A DNA stretch of 63,119 nucleotides, filler included, from Klebsormidium nitens (taxonomy: Eukaryota > Plantae > Klebsormidiophyceae): the NCBI GenBank assembly GCA_000708835.1. It is 8 parts of 8 records of this genome, joined end to end, with 100 filler letters (N's around TTAATTAATTAA, not from the genome) between each part and the next. Parts side by side here need not be neighbours in the genome. Positions count along the whole stretch, not along the records: positions 25,320 to 48,383 come from DF237866.1; 7 more parts are not named here. One strand, given 5' to 3'. Below the pieces are notes generated by a model that worked only from the letters and a program-made list of their open reading frames with translations, was not told the DNA's origin and made no database searches. Position 1 is the stretch's first letter. Each line of letters starts with the position of its first letter. Below are positions 10,179 through 49,408 of this stretch, in pieces. Position numbers and translations under genes: made by a program.

Positions 10179-11787
10179 CAAATACATCAAAAACTTGAAC
10201 TTTGGAATCAGGAAGAACTGCATGGCTAGAAATCCTGCTACTATGCAAGAGGCCATTGCAGCTGCTCGCGTCGCTGAACAGATTTACGAAACTATTCCGG
10301 ATCAAGACCCTCAGTCAAAACTCAATTCGTTAGAGAAACAAGTAGGGCAACTTCTGCTCACAGAGTCCCCAAAGAGGACTCATGGTACTAGGGCTCAGTC
10401 CAACGGTCCTGCAAATGGGTCTGGCAATGATGGTCATACCGCGGGTGATAGTAGGGGTTCAGATGGCAGGCGCGCGTGGCGCTGTCCTAGGTGCCTGGTA
10501 GAAGGCGGGCCTTATCACACCATTCGGGACTGTCCGAATGAACAACGCGCCCAGTACAACTCTTGCTGTTGGTTTTATGGTAGACACAGGGCTGACTGTT
10601 CCGAAAGGAGCCGCGGCCCTGCGGGCGGTACAGCGGAACACAATTTTCTAGAAGAGGTGGAAGTGATTGACCAGGATTATGGGATGCCCCCTCTTGAGTC
10701 TGGTGTGCCGGCTGAGCTGTATGCAGTTGAGGGTGAAGATTCTGAATCTTGGTCTGAGGATGAGGATGAATACTCCAGTTCCGATGAGTCTTTGGAAGAG
10801 GTTGAAATCTACGCTCAGAAAAGAGGGCGTGAAGAACCCACTGTCAGTGCAGGGACTGGCCGCCAGGCGGGTCGAGACAAGCGCCGCTTACCAAATCAGC
10901 GTGAGCCGGTAAAACCTGTTGCGAATCCTCTCACTGCAGAACAAAAGCGGCAGCGCACTGAAGCTAGGGCGCGCAACCGTCAACAACAAGAAGTCCAAAA
11001 TGAGCTCATGATCAAAGCTGCACTTGGTGAGGCGCGAGAGCGCCTGGTCAGTCACAAACAAGTCAAACACTTTCGTACTGATCTTCACAGGTACGTCGAC
11101 AGACTGTTTGCACATCAGAAACGGACACGTCCAAAAGCGGCTCAAACAGCCGGGCGTGACGCTACTGGCGGAGAGCAGCAACCCCCTGCAAAGAAGGGAA
11201 GACCTTCTGATCCGCCGCGTGAGTCTAACTATCTCAAAGTAGAAACGGATCCGAAGTATGATGTTCCAAATCTGCGAACCGAGGTGCAAGTCTTGGTCGA
11301 AGATGTTCCGACTCGCATCATTCTCGATTCTGGGGCAACAATGTCTGGTGTGTCAGAGAGCTTGGTGCACAAGCTGAAAATCGCTCACAAAATCCGGCCC
11401 ACTGAGGCCGCTTACAAAACTTCTTCTGGCGAACTTCGTCCTGCTTTGGGCACCGCTCCGATTCACCTCCGCCTTGGCACTCTGAAGGTTAAAACCCGGA
11501 TGATTGTCATGCCTGCCGAATGCTCCTACAATCTGCTCTTGGCGAATGACGTGATGGCTCCTCTGAAGATTGATATCCTTAGGAGCAGAAACGAAATTCA
11601 GTGTCACTATGCCGGAGAAAAGGTCGTTTTGCCAATCGTTGCTGAAAGGGGTGATCCCCGAGACGCCTTGTTTAACGACGCTTACTTTGTCACGACGGTT
11701 GAGTCCGTTCATGGTGATGCCTGGGTCGGACAACAGCCGCCAGTCATCAAATTGACCCGCCTGTCAAAAAACGGACGGCCCCCGTAA
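10179..11787 (+). pseudogene. gag C-terminal half, CCHC-type knuckle and aspartic protease
   Basis: RNPATMQEAIAAAR; CPRC...HTIRDC knuckle; IILDSGATMSGVS protease active site; YNLLLAND. Confidence 0.88.
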
Positions 11788-11809
11788 GTTCGAGGGACTA
11801 TTGTGTCCC
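11766..11809 (+). promoter_or_regulatory. Candidate -1 programmed ribosomal frameshift signal between protease and RT
   Basis: A_AAA_AAC at 11766-11772 is in the correct phase of the gag-pro ORF, 4 codons before its stop; the -1 frame is open from there into the RT ORF; hairpins ACGG-ccc-CCGT (11775-11785) and GGGAC-tattgt-GTCCC (11794-11809) follow. Confidence 0.7.
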
Positions 11810-11852
11810 AGAAGATAAGGGACAAGTCCTTAAGGGGGTCAAAATCCGAACT

Positions 11853-13568
11853 GTGGCGGACTTAGAAGTAGTTCGGAGGTGGGCTAAAGCTGACAAGGCT
11901 CCAAACGGGCAATTGAAAAAGTTGCTAAAGAAAGCTAAAAAGGCGATTCTCAACCCGGACATTGGTTCGTTTACCTGGTTGTACCGTGATGGTGTGTCTG
12001 AACCTCCTGTTGAATTGATCCGAATGCAGGTACAAGTTGTTTCGAACTCCGACCAGGAAGTCTACTCCCAAGAGCCGGCACAAAAGGCCGACTACACCGT
12101 GGAGGACGTCCAGCGCATCGTGTCAGAGATCACCTTCGGCAAAACTTTGACACCCTCTGAGCGGCAAGAGCTTGAAGACGTCATTCGACGTCGGATCACC
12201 AGCTTCAGCCGTTACAAAGGTGATGTCGGATTCACTACCTTAATTGAGCATGAGATTGACCTTTTGAATAAAACCCCGATCAAAGTTCGGCCTTTCAAAA
12301 TGTCGTTTGCAGAGCAGAAGATTGCATTAGAGTACATTCAGCAATTTTTGAAAGAAGGAATCATTCGACGCTCTACATCTCCTTGGTCTGTCCCTGCTTT
12401 CCTGGTGGCCAAACCCAATCAGCCAGGCCAGTATCGTATGGTGGTCGACTGGCGTCTCCTTAACAAGGCCACTCGGTCCTGGGCGATGCCTCTGCCGTTC
12501 ATCACTGATTTGCACCAGAAACTGGGCAGGTCCAAGTACTTTGCAACAATGGACGTCACTTCTGGCTTTTACAACATTCCCCTAAAGAAAGAACATCAGC
12601 AGTATACAGCGTTCTCCCTTCGTAATATAGGTCTTTTTGAGTGGTTAGTGATGCCGATGGGGCTAAAGAACTCCCCGGCCACCTTCACTCGCCTTCAAGA
12701 GATCATCTTTCCTCCGATTGATTACGGTGAATTCCTCAGTATCTATCTTGATGATCTTTGTTGTCATGCAGGCACAGTCACCGAACTGGCCCGACATCTG
12801 GATCGCGTGCTCGAACGTCTCTCTTGGGCGGGCCTCAAGCTGAATCCCAAGAAGTGTACGATTGGAGCCGAGGAAGTTGAGTATCTCGGCCATATCATTT
12901 CGCAAGAAGGCATGAGAATGTCTCCTCGAAAGATAGAGGCCATCCAGAATCTGCAGAGCCCTCGTACTGTAAAACAGCTACAGGCCGTGCTTGGGTTGTT
13001 CCAGTATTATCGTGTCTTTATCCACCGGTTTGCTCACCTTGCGAAACCGATGACGAAACTCCTTTCTAAACAAGAGGATTTCAACTGGTCAGCTACTTGT
13101 CAGCAAGCTTTCGAGACTTTAAAGCAAAAGCTGTGTGCGCCGCCAATTCTGGCTCGGTACGATCCTCGTTTTCGCCTTGTCCTAGACACGAACTACGAGA
13201 AGACTACCGTTTCGGCCATCTTGGGGATGCAAAACCCCGCCTACAAACGTGAGAAGGTCATAGGTTACGCATCTCGGACCCTTAGCAAGACGAAAATGGG
13301 TACAACCGAGGGCGAACTCTCTGCTCTGATTTTTGGTTTGAAGCACTTCTCCGAGTTTCTTCGCGGTGGCCCTGAGTTTCTGGTTCGGACCGACCATGCG
13401 GCTCTCACATGGCTGAGAACCATGAACCCTCAACAGGGTAAACTCGCTCGTTGGCTTTCCTACATTGAATCAGACTTTTCTTTCGTGGTTGAGCACCGAA
13501 AGGGCATCAAGCACTCAAATGCGGACGCTCTTTCTCGCGCCAGCGCTTCGCATCTCTCTCGTGACTAA
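11853..13568 (+). CDS. pol: Reverse transcriptase + RNase H (pol), followed by an in-frame stop
   Basis: SPWSVPAFLVAK, RMVVDWRLLN, VMPMGLKNSPATF, IYLDD, LDTN, RTDHAAL, HSNADALSR. Confidence 0.95.
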   Translation: MADLEVVRRWAKADKAPNGQLKKLLKKAKKAILNPDIGSFTWLYRDGVSEPPVELIRMQVQVVSNSDQEVYSQEPAQKADYTVEDVQRIVSEITFGKTLTPSERQELEDVIRRRITSFSRYKGDVGFTTLIEHEIDLLNKTPIKVRPFKMSFAEQKIALEYIQQFLKEGIIRRSTSPWSVPAFLVAKPNQPGQYRMVVDWRLLNKATRSWAMPLPFITDLHQKLGRSKYFATMDVTSGFYNIPLKKEHQQYTAFSLRNIGLFEWLVMPMGLKNSPATFTRLQEIIFPPIDYGEFLSIYLDDLCCHAGTVTELARHLDRVLERLSWAGLKLNPKKCTIGAEEVEYLGHIISQEGMRMSPRKIEAIQNLQSPRTVKQLQAVLGLFQYYRVFIHRFAHLAKPMTKLLSKQEDFNWSATCQQAFETLKQKLCAPPILARYDPRFRLVLDTNYEKTTVSAILGMQNPAYKREKVIGYASRTLSKTKMGTTEGELSALIFGLKHFSEFLRGGPEFLVRTDHAALTWLRTMNPQQGKLARWLSYIESDFSFVVEHRKGIKHSNADALSRASASHLSRD

Positions 13569-14630
13569 TTGACTGACTCCTCTTACCTCCTCCTTTCTCC
13601 AGATCAGTCAATGAAATTCGGCGTCCCTCGTGTGACGTCATCTGACACGCCACCAGCCAACATCACCATTTCGACTGAAAAGCGGACCGGACTGCCAACC
13701 ACAGCGGATCCTGCGGCCAAGAAGCAAAAGCTTCCTGAGGACGCCAAACCTTCAGACGTTGCTGCTGGTGAGCTTGCTGGTCCATCGACTTCTTCCTTAC
13801 CAAAGAAGAAGTACGTTTATACTTTGACTGAACAGCAAGAGTTAAAACGCGCTCATTATGACCTTCTTCACCAGATCTCTGACTTCAAAGACAACACAGG
13901 GTGATTTTCCCTCGACCGTGGTCACAAAATACGAACGGCGAAACTTCAAGAACAAAGCTAAAAACTTTTCTCTTGAAAGTGGGACGTTGTATAAACTTAA
14001 ACCTCATGGTAAAGTTCGCGTTTTGTGGGAGGAAGAAGTTCTTCCTACCTTAAAGGGTATGCACGAAGAGCTTTCTCACTACCCTAAAGATAAAAGCAAG
14101 TTTCGTATCAAGGTTGAAGAGCGTTTCTTTTTCCCTCTACTGACGGAGATTTGTCATAAGTTTATTGCGTCTTGCCCGGAGTGCCAAAACGAAAAGGCAG
14201 GGCGGGCATGTAGAACCGACCGTGAACTTTTTCCGACTCCTCTTGTTTCTCCTTGGTTTCGAGTGCACATCGACTTATGTGGTCCGTTTGAACCGTCTAG
14301 AAAAAAGAAGTGGACGTACATAGTGGTAGCAATCTGCGCATTCACTAAGTTGGTCGTTGGAGGTGGCCTCAGAGAAAAGACTGCGGCCACAGTCACAAAT
14401 TGGTTTAAAGAGGCAATAATGTTTCAGCATGGTTACCCGTTTCAGGTCGTGTCTGATCAAGGGTCCGAATTTCGAGCCGAGTTTGAAGCCCTTCTTAAAG
14501 CAGCTGGGCTCAAACAAGTCCGAGTTACCACAGGCAACCAAAAAGCTAACGGCCAAGTTGAGCATATGATGTCCGTTATTAAGTCGAACCTTAGGATTAT
14601 GTGCGATGCCGAGCCTGACACGTGGGACAA
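13569..14630 (+). pseudogene. Connector and integrase (HHCC zinc finger + DDE core), frameshift near 13885, truncated by gap
   Basis: MHEELSH...CHKFIASCPECQ; RVHIDLCGPF; VVSDQGSEF; NGQVEHMM. Confidence 0.9.
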
Positions 14631-14739
14631 NNNNNNNNNNNNNNNNNNNNNNNNNNNNNNNNNNNNNNNNNNNNTTAATTAATTAANNNNNNNNNNNNNN
14701 NNNNNNNNNNNNNNNNNNNNNNNNNNNNNNAAGAACGTT

Positions 14740-17700
14740 TCATCGAATCCGACTGTAGCCCACATAATGACGTCCCGCCATTTTTGGAAACGCTCGCGGC
14801 CCTCTGAACTCGACAGCACCTTGTTCAAGCGTAAGACCTTCATTATGATGAAATGTACCCGCAGTTGCTGGTTTCAATGGAAATTGGCGTCTGAGAACAG
14901 CACTATCTTCTCTAGTAGTCGCATTGAATGAGCGGAAGGCTTTTGACACAGGTGTCCATGTACTTGAGATGTATGGCCGTTGAGCATACAGCGCAGCACT
15001 TGATTTTCTGAGGGCTCTTCCGACACGCTCGTCGGCGAACTGGAGCCACAGTAATTCTGGTGGGCCAGAATTGATATCAATCGCTTTCAAATGACCCCAC
15101 GCTCCGTGATAAAGGCCGTCCGGCACGTCCAGATTCAACGTTACTTCCAGTATGATTTCTAGCTTCAATTTTAAAGAAAAACACAAAGCTGCGGTTTTTT
15201 CAAAAGGCAATTTGTCGAGTCTACCGAAAAAGAAAGTGCGGTCCTTTTCCGAAAGGTGTTCTGCCATCAGATGATCTTGGGCGTGCACTATCACGCCCTC
15301 ACCTGGTAGAGTCTCGTACACCAAATCGTTGTGCTTATCCAACTGAACGTGTGTCGCAAAAATGTGCCGCAAGAAAATAGAATACTCTTCCGGCGGATGT
15401 TGTGCGTTGATTTCGAAACTTCTAAAGTAAGCCAAGTCTTCTACCGTTTGATCTTCAGTACGTAATCTGTTCATTGTGCATGCGTATGGCATTCCGTGGA
15501 CCTGTCACAAAATGAAAGTCAATTCAAACATGCGGAACAATTGCGCCCAAAGATTTTGGAGTAAGCATGGACGGCCGTTTGAATCGAGCACATACACTCC
15601 TTCGAAACAGTAGTGATCGCCAACAGGCTTCAATTGATAGAGATCACCTACTGCAAGAACGGGGATTCCGCCAAACGGACGCGTATCGTCAAAGATCTCT
15701 TGTAGACGTTTGTGAACTAGAAACAGCAGAGTCGCACCGTTTAGAGAAATCTCTTCGAGAATCATACCACACAAATCTCGTAGCTCGTCTTGCAAGCGGC
15801 TCCGCCATTCGGCAGACAGCTTTCTGTAGGGGAAAGGCCGAATACCAAAAGGGATCCGCAAAGCATGGTGAATAGTAGTGCCGCCGACATTAAAAGCTGC
15901 ATTGCCAGTGAATGCCATTATTAGCACCTTCATAGAATGAGGATCAACTCCAGGACGGCCGTTTTGTAACCTCGTGATAGCTTCTGCAAGACAGCGGACG
16001 GTGACACTCTTCCCTGTGCCAGCGCCGCCAGTAAGAAATTCACAAAACTGCTCATTTGGAGTGAATTTAAAGTGATGCAGCACGTGATAAAGATATTTTT
16101 TCTGATCCCAGATCAGCTCACGGGCCATCGCACGGAACTCTTGGTCTGGCATGGAAGATGACATCAAAGACAAACTAGAACTGTCGTGAGCGCCTCCACC
16201 TTTGAGTCCCAAATCTGGACCGACGTCATAAAGATCGTCTCCAGTGACAACAGCAGACGGCGGAAAGTTTCAAAATGAATGTCAGCGTTCAAAAGATCTA
16301 CATCTTCTACGTGCTTTTCCACAGACTCCCAATCGATACGTTCATTAAAGACGTACGGTTTACGATTCTCTTCAAGCTGAGTTTTGACAGCTTTGAACCT
16401 ATCTGCAAAGGACGAGTACCCTGCTAGCAGGCAAGCATCTTCTGTGTCGTGCAGATCCACAACCGTTTCCGCTTGACTTCGCCAAGGCCAGAAGAGCAAC
16501 AATTATTCCCGGTAATACATTTCTGGAGACTGCCGTAATTTGTACCGAACGTAACGGATCACTTTTCTTTGTGTATATTTTCTGTAGGTCCGAGATTCGA
16601 AAAGGCGAGTCTTATCTGCTGGTTTGGTAGACCTAAGCTGCGCATCACCTTCCATGTTAAGGGAAACTTCCAAATCTTCTTCAGTATCTGGATATTCTTC
16701 GTCATCGTTAAAGTCTGTGTCCATAACAGTAGGCGTTCGATCTTGCTCGAACCACGCTGCGAAATCCGCCAAACACAACTCATCTGCACCTAAAGAACGC
16801 AGAGACAAGTTGCGATGACGGCTGGCATACTTTTCTACGAGGCCCATTGCCATGCAGTCGGTAGAATCTGAACATAAACACTGCAATTCCCAATCTTGTT
16901 TAAGCAGAAAGGTTCTCTCCGATGGCGGCGAAGAAGGTACGAAAATCACCGACCGGGAACTTCCACGAAAAGGCAAGCCAATCGTTCCATATACAGCGTG
17001 TTGCGCACAAATTTCCTGACCGTTGAGGAGCGCGTTTCCCATCGCGCGCAGCACGACAGACGGGTCTGCACTCTCTTCCTGAGCGTGACGGCAAGCGTCC
17101 TTTAGCAAACGGCTTAGAGTTAAATTCGCTTTCATCATGTAAGAATTAATGTAAGAAGCTGCAGCATAAGGCTCCAAAACGAACTGCACGTCTATGTTTG
17201 AATTCTGCAGTTCGAGCAACCTCGGGTTAAACTGATTCACGCGGATTTCATCCGGAGTGCGCTTTATAAAGATGGTTGGCTGTTGCAAAGAAGCTCTGAG
17301 CCCGAAAATATATTGCTCGTCAGTCAAAGAAACGAGATGCAAGAATTCGGAAAACGACAATGCTTTAGCTTTATCTAAATTCGAATCCAAATCCCGAATA
17401 CCGGCACGAAGTATGCGAAGGTACGAAGCACATGCACGTCGATGCTCTTCCGGAGTGTCTTCAGGCAAAGGTCTTAAAAGCTCTGTGCGACTCATAGGCG
17501 GCCTCGGAAAATTGAATTTGCAACGGTACGGTCCACGCTTTCCGTGCTTCTTCAAGCAGTACTTTAATGAATGATTGTGACGCTGCGACTCAAGAAGCTC
17601 TGAAGACACAGCAGTCAAAGAGCACGTAATGAAACGGTCCACGAAAGCGCAGATCTCTTTATCGCTTTGGACCCCCAGAATAGGTGCTCCTTCTACCCAA

Positions 17701-17885: not shown

Positions 17886-17986
17886 NNNNNNNNNNNNNNN
17901 NNNNNNNNNNNNNNNNNNNNNNNNNNNNNTTAATTAATTAANNNNNNNNNNNNNNNNNNNNNNNNNNNNNNNNNNNNNNNNNNNNC

Positions 17987-20900
17987 TGTATGTTGCCAGC
18001 AATTGGGTGATTAGCTGCTTCTGAATTCCGGTTAGTCTCTTACCCTTTTGAATAGCTCCCAAGCCCGTGAGGATACTCTCTACTTCTGAACACGTGCCAC
18101 CCATTGTGTTGCGCCAGTCTACCATTGCGTCCAGTTCCGATTCACTTACCAGGCTTTGAATCTCATCGTACAAAGCTAGATCACTGCTAAGCCCCAGTTG
18201 CTCATCTCGAAATACTTCCACTACTTCGTCCACAGCACTTTCTTCAAAAGGCTCCTCAAAAAGTACCTCTAATCCCAGTCCATCTAGTTTGCCTGCATCC
18301 TCCCAGTCTTCAAAGCTAAATGCCTCTGAAGCCTTCCAAAATTCCTCTACCTCAGGCAGCACGGCTTCTTCTATTTCCGACCACTCTTCGCTCCATTCTG
18401 ACTCCTCATCGAACTCTATTTCCTCCCACTGGTCGTGGTTAATGCTGCCTGCACCTCCTGAATCCACTTCTGTTTCCAAATCAGACTCTTCTTGCCTCTG
18501 TTTATCTTGCAATTCCCACGGAAACTGTGCCCTAGGAGCCGGCCTCCTTTCAAACCTTGCCTCTTCCCTGTGTTCCTTTCTTTCGTTGATCTTATCAAAC
18601 GGTTCTATTTCCAGATAAGCCGCCATCCCAGTACTTGCCTCAAATGCCAGTGGAAGTGTTCCTTGATGCTGATGATCAATCCAGAAGTTCAAAGTCCTAG
18701 AGTGGTAGTCAATGTTAGCCCCAATCACGTGCAGAAAGTCATTTCCCAACAGAACGTCATAGTTCGTAGCCTTGACTATATGAGCGTCCAGTGCAACCTC
18801 TAACTCCCCAATTTTTATAAGTATTCTAGGCAACAGCCCCATTGGAATCTCCTTTTCCCCCGATGAATTCCTGAAACTACACCTTGGTGGCAAAAGTTTA
18901 CCCATCAGGTCCAACCTCCTAGCCACCAGCTGACTGATCAAAGTATGAGAACATCCCGTGTCTATGTACCCCTCTACTGGCATTCCCAGTATCTCAACAG
19001 GTGCCCTAGCCGCTGTGTAATCCGAAAGCAGCACCTGAGCCTCTGCATGATGACTCTGACTACCAACTGCCCCAGTTTCACTGATCCCAGCTCTTGGTGT
19101 TGTCAAATATGTCAGCAGCTCTTGTCGAACCTTAGGTGCCAGATGTATCAAGGTCTGAAAGTCCACTCGTGCCTGTGTTGACTTCAGTTGATTCAATATT
19201 GAGTACGTTTCAGCCTTCTGCTGAACCACAGCCCGACCACCAGTCTGATACCTAGCTGGCCTCGTGTAACTCCTTATTGCAGAACCACCTTCTACCGGAA
19301 ACTGCCTTGAACCTCTGCCATCTGCCTGACTTTCATTCGGCTGCCCTTCTGCAGCATCCTTGGTCTGCCGCCTCGGTAAATTCAAAGGAAATGGAGTCCG
19401 CTTTGCAGGTCTCCCTTCCCCGTCGTCACCCCTTTCACGGGTTCTCTTCAGTGCTCCATACACATCTGCTATCAGTGCATACTCTGCCGCCGGCTCTAAC
19501 TCCTGCTTCGAACCCTCTATCAAGTCCTTCACCCATTCACGTCCCTCAAAGAAGTCTGCCATCAGTGCTGACCCCTTTTGAACCTGCTCCTTTACCTCAT
19601 CAATCTCTTTTATCAGTTCTTCAAAGCCTGAGTTTCCCGTTTCTGCAGCACCAGCTTCTGAGTCTGCTAACCCTGCGAACCTACCATCATTCGGTGGACA
19701 ATCTCTTGCTATGTGTCCCCTCTGCCCACAGATATAACAACCATCCTTTCCATACTGCGGTGCATTCCTCTCTTCCNNNNNNNNNNNNNNNNNNNNCACA
19801 AAATGGAGTCCGCTTTGCAGGTCTCCCTTCCCCGTCGTCACCCCTTTCACGGGTTCTCTTCAGTGCTGCATACACATCTGCTATCAGTGCATACTCTGCC
19901 GCCGGCTCTAACTCCTGCTTCGAACCCTCTATCAAGTCCTTCACCCATTCACGTCCCTCAAAGAAGTTTGCCATCAGTGCTGATCCCTTTTAAACCTGCT
20001 CCTTTACCTCATCAATCTCCTTTATCAGTTCTTCAAAGCCTGAGTTTCCCGTTTCTGCAGCACCTGCAGAAGTTGCTGAGTCTGCTGACCCTGCGAACCT
20101 GCCATCATTCTGTGGACAATCTCTTGCTATGTGTCCCTTCTGCCCATAGATATAACAACCATCCTTTCCATACTGCGGTGCATTCCTCTCTTCCACATGT
20201 GCCAACAGCTTCAGATTTTCTAACTTCTTTGCAATATCATCTACCTCACTGCGAACCTTCGCACTAGCTGAACCAGGCCTACTTCCTGGATTCGGCCTGA
20301 CTGGTGGACTCGGTTCTACCGGCCTTGTATTTACTGGCTGACTTCTAAACTCTGTTTCCCTTCCTGGCCCATCATTCTCAGCCCTGCGCGCTGGTGGGAC
20401 ATACACATTCGGCCGTGGTCTGCTCAAAGGACCCCTCCTTTGATCGAATGACTCTCTGTTCAGACTTCCCCACTGATTAACTGGCCCTAAGTCGAACTCG
20501 ATGGACTCGTAGTAATCGGCAGCCTCTACTGCCTCGTCCAGTTCCTGAGGAATTTTCATTCCCACTTTGTACCTTAAGCTCGGCCTCAAACCAGTGATGA
20601 ACCTACACATGAGCAGGTCATCAGACACTGCATCATCCAGCTTCGCTGCTAGGTACTTCAGCTCTTGCAAAAATGACTTTGCTCTTTCACCAGTCCTTTG
20701 CACCCTTGTCTCAAACTGTAACGGCGCTAGCTTTCCGAGCCCCTCGCNNNNNNNNNNNNNNNNNNNNACATGTGCCAACAGCTTCAGATTTTCTAACTTC
20801 TTTGCAATATCATCTACCTCACTGCGAACCTTCGCACTAGCTGAACCAGGCCCACTTCCTGGATTCGGCCTGACTGGTGGACTCGGTTCTACCGGCCTTG

Positions 20901-22460
20901 TATTTACTGGCTGACTTCTAAACTCTGTTTCCCTTCCTGGCCCAGTATTCTCAGCCCTGCGCTCTGGTGGGACATACACGTTCTGCCGTGGTCTGCTCGA
21001 AGGACCCCTCCTTTGATCAAATGACTCTCTGTTCATACTTCCCCACTGATCAACTGGCCCTCTGTCGAACTCGATGGACTCGTAGTAATCCGCAGCCTCT
21101 ACTGCCTCTTCCAATTCTTGAGGAATCTTCATCTCCACTTTGTACTTTAAGCTTGGCCTCAAACCAGTGATGAACCTATACATTAGCAGGTCATCTGACA
21201 CTTCATCATCCAGCTTTGCTGCTAAGTACTTCAGCTCCTGCAAAAACGACTTGGCCCGTTCACCATTCCTCTGCACCCTCGTCTCAAACTCCCTCCTGAG
21301 ATTGAGCTTGAACTAAGCCGTGAAAATCTCTTTACGAGTTTATATCCAAATTCATCAAACGTCCATTCGTCACTGTCCTTGTTAGACTCTAACCACTTGT
21401 CTGCTTCTCCCTGCATAAATGCATATGCCATGCCTCTGCACTTTGAACCTACCCATTCGCTCGCCAGCGCAACCTTCTTGAACGTTCGCAGCCATTCCTT
21501 GGGATCATTCCTTCCATTGTAAGGTGCAAGTAACCGGCTCAAGACCACCTGGTCCGAACCATTCATTATGTTAGCCATCTTGTCTCTTTTTGAAATACAC
21601 TGCCCACCGGGCACTAGAACCTAAAGCCCAGCTAAAACCCTTAGCGCACGACTTTCTCCAAGCCTAAAGCTACGTACCACAGCCTTATACTACCTCCGCA
21701 ATCCTTCTAAATCGCTATCCAGCCTCAACAGGCTACGTACACTCTGCTGAAATCCCTTTGTGCTACCACTGACCAGTCACAATCTAACAATCTGTGCCTC
21801 TATCAACAGCCTTGTCTCAAACCACCAAACCACAGCACAATGCTCAATGTAAGTATGACTCTATCACGCTACAACCCTTTATCTACAATGCCTAAGCCCC
21901 AAGCCTGCCTCGAGCCCTTTTTACTTAGTCGCAATCAGCCTAATCCAAAGTCTACCGAGCCGCCGCTCACTATCTGCACAAATGCTGCACAACCAGGCCC
22001 GCCGAGTCTGCTGTGCAGCACCCAGGGTGCTGGACAGGACCTCCGACCTCGACTCTGACACTTCGTCGCTCGGCCGACTCGCTCGGCACTCTACACGTGG
22101 TTAAATGACTTAGCCAAATTCTCGACTCGGCCGCCGACGCGTGCGGTACTTCACCAAAATTTTCGCGGCGACTTCCACACAACCAGTATGAAGCACGTCA
22201 GATGTACACTCGTACACCGAAAATCCCGGTAATCCGTACGCTCGGAACGCAAAAGTACACTCACTTTAACTCTACCCAATGATTAGACTGCCAAATCGCC
22301 AATGACTTCGCCGTTCTGACACCCCTTAGTCTTATATCAACCCCTTCTAGCGCGATTATACTTCACCAAAATCCCGCAGGCTAGGATCTTATGCCAGGCT
22401 AAAAAGCTGAAAATTCACCCCTGACACCAACCAAGAGCGCACCCGCTCAACAATACACCC
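17987..22460 (-). mobile_element. Second Ty3/gypsy-type retrotransposon: 5' untranslated region, gag, zinc knuckles, protease, start of pol; truncated by gap
   Basis: gag APYNGRNDPKEWLRTF (21231-21590); LRYKV...PQELDEAVEAA; CYICGQRGHIARDCP; protease YIDTGCSHTLIS and YDVLLGNDFL; gag-CTD and knuckle segments occur twice around 20-N gaps. Confidence 0.85.
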
Positions 22461-41232: not shown

Positions 41233-41820
41233 ATGAGGTTTCGATTCTTCAACCAGGAGGGAGTCGAGCGGTTCCAGTGCAACCTCGAGTGCGCCAGCTG
41301 CACAGCTCATAAACGGAATGGTGGTCAGTGCACGCGAAGGGTGTGCATAGGGCTTCCCGCATGCTGGCAGCATTTGCGGACAATCAAAGACGCCAACAGC
41401 GGTTTGAAGATCCAAACATCGGCGATCCCTGGTGCTGGGAAGGGCTTGTTCGCTTGGAGTAAGCACGGTGGGAACAATATCGTGTTTGTGCCAAACGAAA
41501 CCATCTGCACTTACTATGGGGACGTTATCTCCCAGGCAGAGTTTGATGAACGCTATGGGCAAGACACGGGGCCTTACGTTGCAAGGGGCCACGCTGGGCT
41601 ACTCGTCGACGGGGCATGCAAGCGAGGGGCCGGAACCATTGCAAATGGCCGGCGGGGAAACGTTGATTCGAATGCACGGTTTGCCAACAGCCATGCTGGA
41701 GGGGTGCACAGGCTCGCGATAAAGGCGACCAAGAACATTCGGCACGGGCAGGAGATCATTGTACCGTATGGTGCAGACTACTGGCAAAAACACCGCGGTG
41801 TTGCACGTACAACCCGTTGA
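41233..41820 (+). CDS. SET-domain lysine methyltransferase with N-terminal C-C-C-H zinc motif
   Basis: CTAH...QCTRRVCIGLPACWQH; SAIPGAGKGLFA; ICTYYGD; IAN; IKATKNIRHGQEIIVPYGADYW. Confidence 0.9.
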   Translation: MRFRFFNQEGVERFQCNLECASCTAHKRNGGQCTRRVCIGLPACWQHLRTIKDANSGLKIQTSAIPGAGKGLFAWSKHGGNNIVFVPNETICTYYGDVISQAEFDERYGQDTGPYVARGHAGLLVDGACKRGAGTIANGRRGNVDSNARFANSHAGGVHRLAIKATKNIRHGQEIIVPYGADYWQKHRGVARTTR

Positions 41821-43503: not shown

Positions 43504-44448
43504 TCAGACCCTTCTGTAAACCCGCTCTGCAATCTCGGCAGAGTGGCCCATACTTGCTGCGATTGCGTGCCTCTCTTTCAAGGTGACCTCGTCCTTGTAC
43601 AGCTCACTCAGGAAGATCTTTCTCAGCATCCATGACCCTACGTGTTTCCCTTCCTTCTCAAAGATCTGCCCAAACGTCTTGCTCAGGTAGGCTGGAGACA
43701 TGTGCTGGTCCCCGTTTGTCAGATTCGAGAGGAGATATTTCCTCGGGAAGAGTTTGAGGCTGTCCGAAACAATCTTGTTGACAGCTCTTGGGAACGGGGT
43801 TGTCTTATCGCCGTACGCCTTGTGGGTCTTGTAATGACGCAGGAGCATCGTGTAGGATCCTGGTGGGCCCTCTACGAGTACGTTCAGCTTTTGATCTGCC
43901 TCTGACTGCTCTTGCCCGTGGGGTATGATCTTGACCTCTGCATAATCGTTGCGGAGAGGGTTCATCTTTGAGTACAGGTTCAGTATGAGGTGGTGCGTGA
44001 TAGTCCTGCGGTCTTCGAGATCAATCTCTTCGAGCTTTTTTCCAACGATTCGTTTTCGTATGATCCTCTGAAGCTTGTCAATCTTGTTCTTCACATCTTT
44101 GAGGGTGATCCAGTTTTTCAACTCGCGCTCCGTCTTTGTCTGCTCGAGGTTGTCCTTGCTTGCAACCTCCTTTAAGCACTTTTCGAGCTCCTCAGAGTAC
44201 TTGGAGTGCAGTTCGCCCTCGTCACAGCCTTTCAGGAGAACGACGATTGGGACGATGTAAAGCTTCCTGGACGCAGGCTTGTAGTGGCTGATTGAGCTCA
44301 TAACCGAGTCCAAGTCTCTCAGCCAGTGAATATCATCAAAGTTCTCTGATCCTGTGAGCATGCGGTGAAGGCGCTTGAGAATAGTAATATATTGTGTCAC
44401 TGTTGTGTCTGATCGCCTCTCGCCGGAAAGAAGGTTCCGGAGGTCCAT
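43504..44448 (-). CDS. Tyrosine recombinase/integrase (NCLDV/PLV type), catalytic residues intact
   Basis: NPLRND (R), HYKT (K), WMLRKIFLS (R), MGHS (H), RVY (Y). Confidence 0.9.
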   Translation of the reverse strand: MDLRNLLSGERRSDTTVTQYITILKRLHRMLTGSENFDDIHWLRDLDSVMSSISHYKPASRKLYIVPIVVLLKGCDEGELHSKYSEELEKCLKEVASKDNLEQTKTERELKNWITLKDVKNKIDKLQRIIRKRIVGKKLEEIDLEDRRTITHHLILNLYSKMNPLRNDYAEVKIIPHGQEQSEADQKLNVLVEGPPGSYTMLLRHYKTHKAYGDKTTPFPRAVNKIVSDSLKLFPRKYLLSNLTNGDQHMSPAYLSKTFGQIFEKEGKHVGSWMLRKIFLSELYKDEVTLKERHAIAASMGHSAEIAERVYRRV

Positions 44449-44648
44449 CCGCCCTACTTCAAACGCAGATAATTTTCTAACATGGAGTGCACTATTGATT
44501 ACTTCGGTACGGTTCAGACACAAATGGGCAGATGCGCAGGTGGTTTGTACCCCCATCCCTATTATCAAAACAACATCATCCCGATTTTGAAATACTCTTG
44601 AAAGTTTGTCTCCATCCGTGTATATGCGCACGCCCGTCATTTATTATA

Positions 44649-46085
44649 ATGTCATTGCATTCTCGTTTGAAACACGTGAATGTATATCTCACAAGTGGCA
44701 TGGATGACTTCAGTGTGGAGTACGCCAGTTTCAACGAAGATGGCACTCGTATGACTGCGACACAGAGGAAGGAAGCCAAGGAGGCTGCAAATTTCCTGAA
44801 GCGAGTCACCCACACTGTAGCACGGTGCAGAGAGATTGAGAGCATGCTGCAAGAGGTCCGGGCCATACTTCCTGCCTTTGACGAGAGACAGCTTGTTTTG
44901 CGGAATAGATGGAATAGCAGCCTGAAGCAGCTGAAGACAAGAGGGATTGACACCGTTCGTTACACGATGCCAGAGTTTGATGGAACGTGCCAGGAATGTA
45001 CTAGTGGTCTTTCAGAGAGAATGGCCTGTGCTATACTCTGTGAAACACATGTGAAGTGGGTATGCATTTCGTGTGTCCCAGGTGGAGAGCGCATAGAAGC
45101 AAAAGCTGCACTGAGAGCCCTCCGGCAGGAGGTAGAGACGAGGATGAACAATCTTCATCAGACATTGGGGGAGCTTGGGGCTTTAGAACTGCAAGGTAGA
45201 GTGCGCACTCTTATTGACATTGTGCAAGTACTGAAAAGCTCTGCAAGAACGCCGTTGGATGATGATGGTTCCCAGGACATATGGACAGGCATTAGGGGCT
45301 TTGAAAGGTATGCATGGCAACTGGCTCTGAGTGCAAGCCCTGAGTTTCCAGCTGACATCATAGGACAGTGCCTGGTCTATCAATCCATGACTGTCATTGA
45401 GCGCAAGGCTTTAGCTCAGCTGCATGCACGCGTGAAGGACATGCACAATCGGGTGTTCCATCTAGATATTGACCTGTTGATAAAAGAGTCCGTTGTGGGA
45501 AGGAACAAAGCTATTCGTGGGCGCTTCAAAGGCCGACTTGTGGAGGTAATCACGCTCGAGGATGCCAGGCGACAGTGGGACCTCCAAAAAGAGTTGTGTT
45601 CGAGTTGCGGTGAAGCCTTGCTGTGGAGCAGGCTGGTTGGAGGGACCACCAACTTTCCAGAGTTGGATCGGTCAGATGTGAGATTAGCCACATACGTTGA
45701 CAACTTTACTTGGATGTGCCACTGGTGCAATACCAGCAAGGGCTTACGGACAGACCTCCGTGCTTATGATGAAGCACTCTTGGACACTATCACAACAGTA
45801 CAGGAATCAATTGCCAACGGGGAAATTGACAATGACAAGGAGTCGCTTCTCAGAATGTTGCATGAGGAGATTGCTCGGCAGGCAAGCCGACAGGGCTTTC
45901 TGTCCATGACACAGAGTAAAACTGCCATATGGGGGCAATCTGCTGTGATTGATCCATGTCAGCTGTTGCAAAAGACGCAATGCGCCTCCTGTTCGGAAGC
46001 TCTGTTGTCTTTAGAAGGGCTTGGAGCACAGCCCGGCGCACAATACCTTGTGCTGCTTCCAGTCTTTCTTGAAGCAAGCCTGTGA
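44649..46085 (+). CDS. Cys-rich protein with HNH-like (His-Me finger) motif
   Basis: CSSCG...LDRSD..LATYVDN...MCHWCNTSKG matches the C-x2-C...DR-x-D...N...C-x2-CN-x2-K pattern; additional CxxC pairs and a coiled coil. Confidence 0.6.
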   Translation: MSLHSRLKHVNVYLTSGMDDFSVEYASFNEDGTRMTATQRKEAKEAANFLKRVTHTVARCREIESMLQEVRAILPAFDERQLVLRNRWNSSLKQLKTRGIDTVRYTMPEFDGTCQECTSGLSERMACAILCETHVKWVCISCVPGGERIEAKAALRALRQEVETRMNNLHQTLGELGALELQGRVRTLIDIVQVLKSSARTPLDDDGSQDIWTGIRGFERYAWQLALSASPEFPADIIGQCLVYQSMTVIERKALAQLHARVKDMHNRVFHLDIDLLIKESVVGRNKAIRGRFKGRLVEVITLEDARRQWDLQKELCSSCGEALLWSRLVGGTTNFPELDRSDVRLATYVDNFTWMCHWCNTSKGLRTDLRAYDEALLDTITTVQESIANGEIDNDKESLLRMLHEEIARQASRQGFLSMTQSKTAIWGQSAVIDPCQLLQKTQCASCSEALLSLEGLGAQPGAQYLVLLPVFLEASL

Positions 46086-46328
46086 GCAATACGTTGCCTG
46101 CCTGCATTGTGAACACCTCTGCCTGCTATGCTTACCACAAACCATGCACGAACCCGTGACCACAGACAGCCTGCTCTCAACTTCAGCAATAGACATCTGA
46201 ACGCTGGATTCCAATCTATCAGCTTCAAACACGAAGCGTTCTCTTTCAGCCAGGGTCAACCAGACGGCGTTGTTGCTCTCACTGCGTGGGTTCTGCACCT
46301 CGACCCTGATTGCAATCTTCCCCGGCAC
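46011..46328 (-). CDS. MYND zinc-finger protein
   Basis: CMVCG...RCSQCRQATYCSQACFKKDWKQHKVLC. Confidence 0.9.
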   Translation of the reverse strand: MPGKIAIRVEVQNPRSESNNAVWLTLAERERFVFEADRLESSVQMSIAEVESRLSVVTGSCMVCGKHSRQRCSQCRQATYCSQACFKKDWKQHKVLCAGLCSKPF

Positions 46329-46446
46329 ATGTGGAGGGCAGGGGTAGGACGCAGCTGAATAGGGGCTGCAGCTGTTAAGACGGCTCGTGGACCTGAACGC
46401 AGGTGCGTTTAAATCTCGTCAAAAAACCCTTGGGGTATCTCAGATC

Positions 46447-47220
46447 ATGACCAATGAGCAGCGCTACCTCGGCACCCATGCTGCCAAGCAGGTGCTTGGG
46501 GTCTGTGGGGCCACCCTCAGACAATGGGCCGACTCGGGCCTCATCACCTCCTTCAAGACCCCAGGGGGCAAGTACAGGTATCTCATCGACAACGTCATCT
46601 CAGGGGGCTCAGCGGACACAAGGGCCGAGGAGCTCCAGAGGCCCGCAACGGAGAAGCAGAAGGTCTGCTACTGCAGGGTCTCAAGCCTTGGCCAGAAGGC
46701 CGACCTGGATCGCCAAGCCCAGTACATGCAGTCCAGATACCCAGAGCACACAATTATCCGAGACATCGGCTCAGGCATCAACTTCAAGAGGAAGGGCCTT
46801 CAGACCATTTTGGAACTCGCATTCAGAGGCCGCCTCGAGGAGGTTGTGGTTGCCTACCGTGACCGGCTGTGCCGCTTTGCCTACGAATTGGTCGCCTGGA
46901 TCTTTCATCAGCATGGCGTCAGGCTCGTGGTACTCAATGAAGAGGTGGGAGGCTGCGAAGCCGAGCTCTCTCAAGACCTCCTGGCCATCGTACAAGTCTT
47001 CTGCTGCAGAGTCAACGGCAAACGGAAGTACAAGAGAGACAAGCCTCAAGAGAGTGATAAGGATCAGGATCTATCCCAATCAGGAAGGGCGGACGATCCT
47101 GAAGCGCTGGTTCGGTTGTGCCAGGAAGACATACAACATGGCCCTCGAAGCGCTCAAGAAGCGCACAGCCCACAAGCGGACGGAGGCTTGGCTCAAGAAC
47201 CGCTTCACCAGGGCCTCTAA
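46447..47220 (+). CDS. tnpA: IS607-family TnpA serine recombinase
   Basis: MerR-like HTH (AAKQVLGV...TLRQWADSG...TPGGKYRY), catalytic YCRVSS, DIGSG, YRDRLCRF, EL.QDLLAI..VF. Confidence 0.95.
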   Translation: MTNEQRYLGTHAAKQVLGVCGATLRQWADSGLITSFKTPGGKYRYLIDNVISGGSADTRAEELQRPATEKQKVCYCRVSSLGQKADLDRQAQYMQSRYPEHTIIRDIGSGINFKRKGLQTILELAFRGRLEEVVVAYRDRLCRFAYELVAWIFHQHGVRLVVLNEEVGGCEAELSQDLLAIVQVFCCRVNGKRKYKRDKPQESDKDQDLSQSGRADDPEALVRLCQEDIQHGPRSAQEAHSPQADGGLAQEPLHQGL

Positions 47221-48253
47221 CGTGTCGAAGGCCAATTCGTTCCTCCTTGACACGCCGACTCATGTCCGGGACGGGGCTATTGCTGACTTGATGAAGGGCC
47301 TGAGGAACGAGGTCGCAAAGAAGCGCAAGAACGGCTCTCACGCCTTCGAGATGAGATACCGGTCAAAGAAGGAAGTTCAGAGCTTATATCTGGAGAAGAC
47401 GGCCATCAAGAAGCTCATCCATGCAGATTCCCATTCTGACTTCCTCTCGATGTATCCGACTCACGTCACCAATGCAATTTTCCTTATCTCCAAGAAAGCC
47501 TCCTTACTGAACTGCCGAGGCAAAGTTTCCTTTGACGCGCGCCTCGTGATGGACAAGCTGGGTCACTTTCACATCCACGCCACTGTTGAGAAGGATGAGA
47601 TCCCTTCCGAGAACCAAGGAAGGGGTATTGTTGCTCTTGATCCAGGGGTGAGGACTTTCATGACCGCCTACAGCCCATCCGACAACGTGGCCTTTCAGAT
47701 CGCTCCAGGGTGCATTCAGCGCATGGTTCGGCTCGAGCACCATATTGACCGACTGCGCTCAGAGATCTCTCTGCTTCCTCCTCAATGCAAAGGACGAGCT
47801 CGTAGGATGCGCAAGGCAGCCTTAAGGCTGCATAAACGAGTCTCGAACCTCACATCTGAGGTGCATTGGAAGGTGGCACAGTTCTTGACCGATCGGTTCC
47901 AGACAATTGTTCTGCCCCCTTTTGCAACTCAAGAGATGTGCTCAAGGACCGGGGACAGACAAAGGAGGATCGGCAAGAGCACGAGCCGCAAGATGCACCT
48001 TTGGGGCCACTACACGTTCCGCACAAGGTTGGCAATGAAGTGCAAGGAGCGTGGATGCGATCTGAAGGTTCTCGATGAGGTGTACACAACCAAGACGTGT
48101 ACGGGCTGTGGATGGGTCCATGACACGATTGGCGGCTCAAAGGTCTTCCTTTGCCAGGGGTGTGGGTTGGAGACGGATCGAGACATCAATGGTGCAAGGA
48201 ACATCTTCCTCAAGCACCACAAGCGCCTGATGGGGGGCTCACTGCCCTCCTGA
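46937..48253 (+). CDS. Fanzor2/TnpB RNA-guided nuclease (frame open from 46454)
   Basis: IRIYP N-terminal motif; RuvC-I ALDPGVRTF; VLPPF in place of the canonical RuvC-II Glu with relocated Glu in LDEVYTTKTC; zinc ribbon CTGC...CQGC; RuvC-III DRDINGARNI. Confidence 0.93.
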   Translation: MKRWEAAKPSSLKTSWPSYKSSAAESTANGSTRETSLKRVIRIRIYPNQEGRTILKRWFGCARKTYNMALEALKKRTAHKRTEAWLKNRFTRASNVSKANSFLLDTPTHVRDGAIADLMKGLRNEVAKKRKNGSHAFEMRYRSKKEVQSLYLEKTAIKKLIHADSHSDFLSMYPTHVTNAIFLISKKASLLNCRGKVSFDARLVMDKLGHFHIHATVEKDEIPSENQGRGIVALDPGVRTFMTAYSPSDNVAFQIAPGCIQRMVRLEHHIDRLRSEISLLPPQCKGRARRMRKAALRLHKRVSNLTSEVHWKVAQFLTDRFQTIVLPPFATQEMCSRTGDRQRRIGKSTSRKMHLWGHYTFRTRLAMKCKERGCDLKVLDEVYTTKTCTGCGWVHDTIGGSKVFLCQGCGLETDRDINGARNIFLKHHKRLMGGSLPS

Positions 48254-48340
48254 AGGCTTTGCCTCGCTAGTGCCTCGGTACTTCAGTGCCGTGCATGGGA
48301 GCTGGTGAAGCTGAGGCTTTGGTTCCTTTCGTTCAGCATA
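48251..48340 (+). ncRNA. Candidate omegaRNA scaffold at the Fanzor 3' end
   Basis: Nested stem GCCTCGG(48272-48278)/CTGAGGC(48311-48317) enclosing CTTCA/TGAAG, at the position expected for TnpB/Fanzor omegaRNA. Confidence 0.55.
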
Positions 48341-49408
48341 CAAACGCCGGCATCTCGCCGTGTAATTTGAAGATACATGTGCTNNNNNNNNNNNNNNNNN
48401 NNNNNNNNNNNNNNNNNNNNNNNNNNNTTAATTAATTAANNNNNNNNNNNNNNNNNNNNNNNNNNNNNNNNNNNNNNNNNNNNACAGTGGCATAATTACA
48501 ATTAATTATGTCACATCAATACTGGCCACATGTCGACACGTCGACAAACTGGCAAACCCGAAGGTTTAACTGCCGTGCGATTGTGCGGTTAGACTTAACC
48601 ATAGCCCAATCGTCACAAATAATTCATGAATGCAGCATTTTATGTCTAGATCGACCATGAGTTGTTTCGGACCATCGACTGCATTGGCAACACACGGGAT
48701 CCCTTGGCAAGCTCTCGGCTGATACCAGTTCTTGTGTCCAATGAACCAGAAGCCTAAGGGCGTAAGAGATGCATATGGTTTGATCTGGACCATACAAAGA
48801 AACATCGTATTGGCTCTAGCGCTTATAGTCGAGCAGTATCACGAGGTTCTACATTACGTGCTCGGTGCACACTCTTCAGACGGTTGGAACCAACTTAAGA
48901 GTGTTTTTAATCTGCGTGCATACATGCTATTATCTGGTCCCGACATCATGAGAGGATGGAGACCAATCAGCATTGATCTCCATGGCTGACGCCAACCTTG
49001 ATTGAAGACTCTAGCTGGTGTCCAATCAAATCTCAATCCTATTGTCGTGCTAGACTAAGCGAAAGCGACTGTTCAAGCATTTTCCGGAGCGTAATTGACG
49101 GATATCAACCTTGAAAGATAGTGGTACTACGAATAATAACAGGATTCGTAAGCTGGTTACCAGCAAGCTAATAATTTTTGTACTTTGTCTCATGACATGG
49201 CAGACTGCTTCATCTGTTGTAGTCAGAACCACCAGGCATCGATGTTAGGAGTTTCCCTCCTGTTTCTGTACGTCAAGTGCGTATGTACAGGATCAACAGA
49301 TACTTTCTACCTGTCGAAAGGCCGCTGCCATTGCAGAGCACAACGAAACCCACATTGGCAACGCAACTCAACCAGCACGCTGGCCATCCTTACAACCCAC
49401 TGAACGGC

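Follow-up and report, generated by a model that had tools for sequence, protein, structure and literature searches.

A Fanzor2 nuclease gene probably overprinted on the transposase gene of an IS607 transposon in the streptophyte alga Klebsormidium nitens

Introduction

The locus considered here raises the question of how a two-gene bacterial insertion sequence might be expressed under eukaryotic translation, and which nuclease would then be made from it. The window, i.e., the whole stretch of 63,119 nucleotides (nt) of DNA that was analysed, comes from the genome assembly of the streptophyte alga Klebsormidium nitens (GenBank GCA_000708835.1) and contains an IS607-type element with two genes, tnpA coding for a serine transposase and a second gene coding for an RNA-guided nuclease of the Fanzor2 family. 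An initial annotation made from the sequence had described a complete-looking IS607/Fanzor2 element followed by a candidate omegaRNA, with no mention of the Fanzor2 frame being open from 46454 across tnpA. According to the explanation favoured here, which we hold to be probable, the element is a ~2.1-kb transposon, situated in a part of the K. nitens genome that is likely of viral origin, and its tnpA gene would be overprinted by a 599-codon Fanzor2 frame. Both proteins would likely be made by leaky scanning, and the nuclease is predicted to cleave at GGG with an omegaRNA extending from ~48225 to a gap in the window (Table 1).

The transposase and the nuclease

With respect to the first gene, the assignment to the serine recombinases of IS607 was borne out, as TnpA scores 160.9 bits against the NCBIfam model transpos_IS607 (NF033518, cut-off 110) and has Pfam matches to Resolvase and HTH_17, and thus combines a helix-turn-helix (HTH) at the N-terminus with a C-terminal serine recombinase domain. 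The conserved part of the protein reaches to about amino acid (aa) 195 and includes, besides the HTH, the motif YCRVSS at aa 75-80 with S79 and the helix E region holding the invariant residues D177, G191 and R193.

The nuclease is by its sequence a Fanzor2, a placement that rests on best matches. It carries the motifs ALDPG (D396), LDEVY (E542), DRDING (D577), CTGC and CQGC, and D396, E542 and D577 align with D324, E467 and D501 of ApmFz2, the Fanzor2 of a mimivirus, for which catalytic roles have been described (PMC11832414). The protein accordingly has the DPG at RuvC-I, the C-terminally shifted glutamate and the RuvC-III aspartate of Fanzor2, and in this respect the rearranged RuvC fold proposed initially stands, as does the intact zinc ribbon, with two CxxC pairs. 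The C4 zinc ribbon PF07282 and the OrfB HTH PF12323 both score above cut-off, as does the match to guided_TnpB (131.9, cut-off 100), and the closest solved structure, by sequence as well as by fold, is that of the mimivirus Fanzor2 (PDB 9b0l). Membership in Fanzor1, the family of KnFNuc from the same alga, was considered and rejected, given the presence of an IS607 TnpA and the rank of the SpuFz chains (34th or lower), far under ApmFz2 and TnpB.

It is the N-terminal part of the nuclease that connects the two genes. In a profile built from 28 aligned homologues, picked from the top 38 of 120 listed with long ones favoured, 22 of the 28 cover the N-terminal stretch, and ApmFz2 residues 52-509 align with residues 119-586 of the nuclease. 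This profile places the RuvC-R domain of ApmFz2 on residues ~131-165, the bases of which also encode TnpA aa 133-167, and aligns N82/S83/W84 of ApmFz2 with G157/S158/W159; of these, N82 and S83 contact the pseudoknot of the omegaRNA in ApmFz2 (PMC11832414). In the fold comparison, 9b0l could be aligned from residue 123 of the AlphaFold model onwards, and TnpB and Cas12f only from 193-199. A structured N-terminal domain corresponding to RuvC-R is therefore indicated by profile and fold alignments that reach back to ApmFz2 residues 52-58. The superposition of 9b0l on the model (Z 22.8, 388 aligned residues) has a root mean square deviation of 27.6, so that the orientation of the lobes differs between the two, and the thumb region (171-196) has a predicted local distance difference test score (pLDDT) below 50. 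Since the RuvC-R-like domain is encoded inside the resolvase core, it likely arose by overprinting of tnpA. Among the relatives, P0035 (623 aa) is annotated as an in-frame fusion of TnpA and nuclease without the overprinted domain, being either a real fusion or a frameshifted assembly.

Two reading frames in one stretch of DNA

Neither the tnpA nor the Fanzor2 frame contains a stop, and the latter covers all but the first 7 nt of tnpA. From the left end of the element to 46460 there are only two ATGs, those of tnpA (46447) and of Fanzor2 (46454), 7 nt apart and preceded at position -3 by A and C, respectively, and the nuclease frame has no further AUG between M9 and M154. The start of the nuclease is likely situated within tnpA, some 200 codons ahead of the TnpB core.

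By comparing relatives of the element it is evident that such open frames recur. A first set, selected by the nuclease, comprised 159 loci and the window, i.e., 160 loci with a nuclease hit, 106 of which have an upstream tnpA-like hit, with the nuclease in the +1 frame in 103 of the 106. In the 47 clusters with an intact tnpA, the +1 frame holds 49 stops, compared to 170 expected from synonymous shuffling or 437 expected from the codon use of the nuclease core, and the +2 frame 520, compared to 562 or 724; the first two tnpA codons, whose fixed TGA would force a stop, were excluded. In 27 of these 47 clusters the +1 frame is free of stops over the whole tnpA match (2.8 expected). As these loci had been ranked on the long query, the test was repeated on loci found with TnpA alone (160 loci, the best 80 of 236 and the best 80 of 561; 149 intact, forming 72 clusters). 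A downstream nuclease is present in 64 of the 72 clusters (47 viral, 17 prokaryotic), while 2 clusters at contig edges were set aside. In the resolvase region of the 64, only 5 stops were found in the +1 frame against 202.7 expected, but 520 in the +2 frame against 551.6, and the overlap of this region is present in 16 of the 17 prokaryotic clusters. In turn, the 6 clusters with room for a nuclease but none present have 116 stops in the +1 frame against 109.4 expected; given that such solo resolvases show no depletion, conservation of TnpA alone does not open the +1 frame. A family-wide dual-coding layout is hence well supported as far as sequence comparison can tell.

The extent of the overlap differs between groups. 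Amongst clusters with a long +1 open reading frame (ORF) and both starts found, and with labels taken from contig names, the nuclease AUG lies at most 16 nt from that of tnpA in 11 of the 12 clusters labelled as giant virus, in 10 of the 26 from other viruses and in 3 of the 12 prokaryotic ones; locus L216 is labelled a chlorovirus by its length. In the prokaryotic clusters, the nuclease start is mostly found inside tnpA (9/12), 76-247 nt in. In addition, a number of loci without an intact tnpA (L007, L009, L022, L050, L057, L077 and others) keep a stop-ridden resolvase remnant in a second frame across the nuclease N-terminus, and the overprinted domain therefore outlives the transposase.

Although with less assurance than for the layout of the element itself, we still lean clearly towards the view that the N-terminal domain of Fanzor2, which would complete RuvC and recognise the pseudoknot of the omegaRNA, originated de novo from the +1 frame of an IS607 resolvase gene in bacteria carrying pro-Fanzors, and that giant viruses stretched the overlap to the second AUG, with leaky scanning replacing translational coupling; the recently mobile algal copy might then serve as a test case for GGG as target-adjacent motif (TAM). 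Overlapping ORFs have been reported for IS607 in general (PMC3673617). No paper on an overlap of tnpA and Fanzor2 was found in literature searches, which left out most subscription papers, the bioRxiv supplements and the supplementary PDF of PMC10530073, and the overlap is not described in the accessible passages of PMC10530073, bioRxiv 2023.08.09.552727, PMC3673617 and PMC3627910.

The left end, the TAM and the mobility of the element

The left end was defined by three different flanks. In sequencing run X1, 46363 is the first base of the element's unitig, which overlaps by 30 bases with the unitig of the window's flank. In run X3, a contig identical to 46363-47611 runs into a different flank at 46363, and in run X5, from another study, a contig of 6416 nt with 156 differences has a third flank ending in a run of G. 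At all three junctions GGG precedes the left end, which places the end upstream of the position near 46390 that had been assumed initially; the rule that the TAM should match the bases left of the left end holds, with its place moved to 46363-46365 and its sequence being GGG. Locus L085 begins like the copy in the window with GG-CTGCAGCTG, and a motif of the type CA(A/G)CTG recurs at the left ends of several relatives. GGG is also the TAM of ApmFz2 (PMC11832414) and of ISXfa1 (bioRxiv 10.1101/2023.08.09.552727), and the TAM-reading residues H215 and E260 of ApmFz2 align with H270 and E314 in the window. The TTA of KnFNuc was tried as a TAM and rejected, because the TTA in question (46375) lies inside the element.

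Runs X1 and X3 represent one sample, possibly the source of the window. On the left side of the element, two flanks in this one sample are thus joined exactly at 46363, with a third in X5, and the finding of two left flanks on a near-identical body at an exact GGG therefore points to recent transposition. The right junction lies outside the sequence. As far as the ends are present, no long terminal inverted repeat was found between them.

The right end and the predicted omegaRNA

An omegaRNA region at the 3' end of the element, as proposed initially, was supported. For the hairpin predicted at the position of 48225-48257, none of 200 mononucleotide shuffles did as well, which applies to the window and also to 6 of 7 relatives with unrelated sequences, the one lacking it being L093. 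A loose loop pattern was found in 41 of 280 loci, 13 of which were kept for having the TGCC(T/A)CGCT of the window after the nuclease gene. In 11 of these 13, the bases after CGCT are complementary to the bases before an AGCGG situated 144-207 nt downstream; L090 ends in AGCGA and L092 is incomplete. The remaining 28 loci are mostly without a pairing AGCGG, many of them ending in ATCGG. Pairs of copies diverge directly after AGCGG (L160/L161, L086/L088). In six hand-picked distinct relatives, 95% of the cells of the pseudoknot are paired and 3 of its 7 pairs are changed on both sides, compared to 19-48% pairing in slid controls, which are lenient because the structure was read from the same sequences. 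In the omegaRNA of ApmFz2, G(-192):C(-2) and C(-191):G(-3) are the pseudoknot pairs that correspond to this pattern (PMC11832414). The 5' half of the pattern is present in the window, and the 3' partner of the window copy would lie in the gap.

Homology between the window and siblings of the element in runs X1, X2, X3, X5 and X6 extends through 48346-48383, and past 48383 the contigs of X2, X3 and X6 remain in mutual agreement for 30 bases; these are siblings with 5-12 differences and not the window's own copy. Because of the CGCTAGT at 48265-48271 and the lack of any GCGG end motif in 48254-48383, the right end is placed in the gap, where it is predicted to read (C)TAGCGG at nominal positions 48414-48472. 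The guide can therefore not be read from the window, nor does the element qualify as complete. Of the nested stem-loop proposed initially, 48270-48320 folds modestly better than 200 shuffles (z = -2.18, 5 of 200 as good) and the longer 48190-48383 likewise (z = -2.67, 2 of 200), but 48254-48383 (z = -0.36, 71 of 200) and 48254-48340 (z = -0.59) do not, and in its minimum free energy form the stem-loop buries bases for which the right end is the pairing partner in relatives. Rfam, searched over 46200-48400, returned nothing at E <= 1, two 3'-end DNA patterns had no match in viral contigs, and single-protein locus searches found nothing in viral or metagenome collections.

Further elements from the same sample have just the 3' end (48213-48383) in common with this one, and there the summed contig depth is 130-230, compared to 27-32 on the body; some of them have a decayed nuclease C-terminus upstream, and they are possibly non-autonomous relatives or RNA-only copies. 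In L160 (3990-4232) and L161, the nuclease ORF enters the omegaRNA region by ~65 codons, the region having a 24-nt tandem repeat.

Proposed mechanism and alternative explanations

From what is known of the family, TnpA would use serine recombination at GG to excise and insert the element. Together with its omegaRNA, the guide of which would be the right flank, Fanzor2 would cut the vacated GGG-flanked allele, whose repair might restore the element. Both proteins would be made from one capped mRNA by leaky scanning of the two AUGs 7 nt apart, and the omegaRNA would run from ~48225 to the right end hidden in the gap. Residues 119-170 may fold as the RuvC-R domain of ApmFz2 contacting the pseudoknot, and in the window copy the guide would have an antisense orientation relative to the start of the MYND-finger gene that the element appears to interrupt. 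In giant viruses, the extension of the overlap to the 5' end would have let cap-dependent ribosomes reach the nuclease frame.

Several observations weigh against this explanation, or parts of it, as do the CpG content and the public gene model discussed below. Taken by itself, the window gives P = 0.03 for an open +1 frame by shuffling, or 0.005 by the codon use of the core, and the case for dual coding thus rests on the relatives, the clusters of which are not phylogenetically independent. Likeness of the +1 peptides is partly forced by the conservation of TnpA, as L183 has 5 stops and yet scores 20.9 bits with the N-terminal profile; the best core hit lies in the +2 frame in 5 of the 64 nuclease-bearing clusters, and in L196 the +1 frame is open although no nuclease is present. 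In the AlphaFold model (predicted template modelling score 0.48), residues 1-118 are disordered with a pLDDT near 25, with order confined to 119-170 in this N-terminal part. Finally, R194 of ApmFz2 could not be mapped onto the window, and since the base preceding the left-end GG is A and not G in several relatives, the TAM may be less strict than GGG, i.e., RGG.

An alternative which leaves the anatomy as it is and disputes present activity only assumes that the movement of the element dates from its time in the virus or from shortly after integration, and that today it is a methylated and unexpressed passenger in the alga; we give it an even chance. It fits with the observed/expected ratio of CpG of 0.67-0.68 across 44001-48000, as would be left by silencing, with the Ty3-type retroelement genes elsewhere in the window, with the listing of Klebsormidium among the species with giant-virus endogenisation and gene-body methylation (PMC11244446), and with the three closest relatives below P0001 being annotated as partial proteins of 273-322 aa. 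However, both frames have remained free of stops over 1.8 kb, and the two left flanks at the exact GGG speak for recent movement.

It appears improbable that the nuclease is instead started from an internal AUG (M154 at 46913 or M162 at 46937, for a protein of 446 or 438 aa, respectively) or that it is produced through a +1 frameshift out of tnpA, with the upstream frame being a by-product of tnpA codon use. The low complexity and disorder of residues 1-118, the starts of most prokaryotic relatives 76-247 nt inside tnpA and the annotated in-frame fusion P0035 would be in line with such a scenario. On the other hand, both M154 and M162 are placed inside or downstream of the segment with the RuvC-R match, there is no other AUG between M9 and M154, +1 stops are not depleted in solo resolvases, and the frame is free of stops over the whole tnpA match in 27 of 47 clusters (2.8 expected).

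Still less credible is the public gene model GAQ92077.1, in which host splicing of a GT-AG intron (46945-47083) yields a single fusion of TnpA 1-166 with Fanzor2 211-599. In its favour, such a model exists and can be aligned with the window as two blocks, the intron borders GT and AG are in place, and another nearby gene is modelled with a short intron. However, the splice would remove TnpA's helix E region with D177, G191 and R193, helix E being needed for formation of the paired-end complex (PMC6188088), as well as the N-terminal domain and the first core strand (residues 199-207) of Fanzor2, and unspliced two-frame coding is conserved in prokaryotic relatives; we therefore rate it a mis-model. 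The layout proposed initially, with the right end near 48337 and the guide thereafter, can practically be discarded, since some contigs do end or diverge locally at 48339-48347 but the same siblings resume homology at ~48350-48383 and agree for 30 nt beyond, 48337-48383 being common to siblings at other sites and lacking GCGG, and relatives end 144-207 nt after the pseudoknot motif, so that copies place the end elsewhere, the very outcome named beforehand as speaking against that layout.

If the favoured explanation is true, a folded, RNA-contacting nuclease domain existing as the second frame of tnpA would clearly exemplify how overprinting gives rise to a domain de novo, and would account for the expression of a two-gene bacterial insertion sequence under eukaryotic translation. 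It would also follow that the public gene model yields the wrong protein, and that mining for Fanzor2 from the TnpB core or from spliced models clips a domain that is needed. The locus in any case adds an uncharacterised, intact-looking Fanzor2 ortholog with a predictable TAM of the GGG type from a streptophyte alga.

Table 1. Features of the IS607/Fanzor2 locus, in window coordinates
Feature	Position	Strand	Basis
MYND-finger gene, first codons likely lost to insertion	46011..46364	-	frame open 117 codons to junction
Left junction GGG: IS607 GG crossover core and predicted TAM (GGG, possibly RGG)	46363..46365	+	three flanks
Element left end and 5' leader, no ATG before 46447	46366..46446	+	sequence
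tnpA, IS607 serine transposase, 257 aa	46447..47220	+	ORF, Pfam, NCBIfam
Fanzor2 ORF, 599 aa	46454..48253	+	+1 frame to tnpA, 767-nt overlap
Fanzor2 residues 119-170 (FW..LWLP..GSW), matching ApmFz2 N-terminal domain incl. RuvC-R	46808..46963	+	same bases encode TnpA aa 121-172
RuvC triad D396 (47639), E542 (48077), D577 (48182) and zinc ribbon C549/C552/C567/C570	47639..48184	+	alignment with ApmFz2
Predicted omegaRNA 5' hairpin, within last Fanzor2 codons	48225..48257	+	shuffles, relatives
Conserved TGCC(T/A)CGCT motif, with CGCTAGT (48265-48271) predicted to pair with the right end in a pseudoknot	48260..48271	+	relatives
Remaining predicted omegaRNA scaffold up to gap, not guide	48272..48383	+	common to siblings in X1, X2, X3, X5, X6
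Gap (N44, 12-nt spacer, N44) hiding right end and guide	48384..48483	.	sequence

Genomic surroundings

The locus is on record as the K. nitens protein GAQ92077.1, and a DUF5767 gene 8 kb upstream of the element is a 100% match to KFL_009170040 of the same species, which confirms the streptophyte host and, with it, that this Fanzor2 is encoded in a eukaryote. In the Atlas, clusters of DUF5767 are 95-100% viral with Nucleocytoviricota being commonest, at a recognition value slightly below the threshold of the tool. The gene at 43504-44640 on the minus strand (378 aa) has viral neighbours in the Atlas, most commonly Preplasmiviricota; its nearest named cluster carries a phage integrase on 16% of the members, K. 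nitens has an annotated paralogue at 50%, and a Pfam search with the protein gave no match. The region around the element is likely virus-derived on account of the DUF5767 neighbour, the viral clustering of the 43504-44640 gene and the giant-virus endogenisation listed for Klebsormidium (PMC11244446), and the virus-associated context stated in the initial annotation is upheld by the DUF5767 gene, which belongs to a giant-virus family. As for the MYND-finger gene at the left junction, the match to a relative of 120 aa (87% identical) begins at residue 6 of the latter, whose extra N-terminal residues include the start codon. A second copy of the element was not found inside the window.

The virus-like region further contains a weak match to a C5 DNA methylase (31842-32871, plus strand), directly followed by a gene for a methyl-CpG-binding domain, and a SET-domain gene (41233-41820, plus strand). 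Genes of the Ty3/gypsy type are situated at 10222-14682 (plus strand) and at 17934-21183 (minus strand), where they code for protease, reverse transcriptase, RNase H and integrase, and for capsid and protease; a PIF1 helicase fragment lies at 15505-16164, and long tandem repeats at 19389-21290. Seven identical gaps of 100 nt (N44, 12-nt spacer, N44) begin at 14631, 17886, 22461, 25220, 48384, 55348 and 58209, adjacency across them not being established. Over 45000-48383, run X10 has 161 C>T and 62 G>A places and at most 8 of each other kind, indicating either a converted library or hypermutated paralogues; the excess of C>T was not taken as a sign of methylation. A scan for sigma-70 promoters gave 2 matches, both on the minus strand, which were set aside as the host is eukaryotic.

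Comparison with known systems

Of the systems described so far, ApmFz2 (ApmFNuc; L79 of Acanthamoeba polyphaga mimivirus; PDB 9B0L; PMC11832414, PMC10530073) shares with the element the IS607 setting, the DPG and shifted glutamate, the zinc ribbon, a structured N-terminal domain with (N/G)SW, GGG at the left junction and, as predicted for the window copy, a pseudoknot that joins the 5' scaffold to the last bases before the guide. It differs in sequence (~20-23% identity) and in length (520 aa, compared to 599 aa here), and the window copy is found in an algal nuclear assembly. Moreover, the N-terminal domain in the window is visibly the second frame of an intact tnpA, of which there is no mention for ApmFz2 in the accessible text of PMC11832414.

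KnFNuc, a Fanzor1 of K. nitens with 5 copies and a TTA TAM (PMC10530073), shares the host species and belongs to an RNA-guided nuclease family, but is set apart by its description from the IS607-linked Fanzor2 of the window; seven peptides of the window are absent from the readable part of Data S1 of that paper (entries to 400 characters). Ac3 of Acanthamoeba (PMC3673617) likewise has intact ORFA and ORFB in a eukaryotic genome, in contrast to the window, however, with 100 additional aa at the N-terminus of ORFB that were read as an insertion and not as dual coding.

The pro-Fanzors and the IS607 TnpB proteins of the ISXfa1 type (bioRxiv 10.1101/2023.08.09.552727), finally, share the serine TnpA and, as predicted for the window copy, the GG core, the CGG right end, the GGG TAM (ISXfa1) and the pseudoknot. 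The difference lies in where the nuclease begins, i.e., inside tnpA in 9 of 12 prokaryotic clusters, but 7 nt after the tnpA AUG in the window, as in 11 of the 12 clusters from giant viruses.

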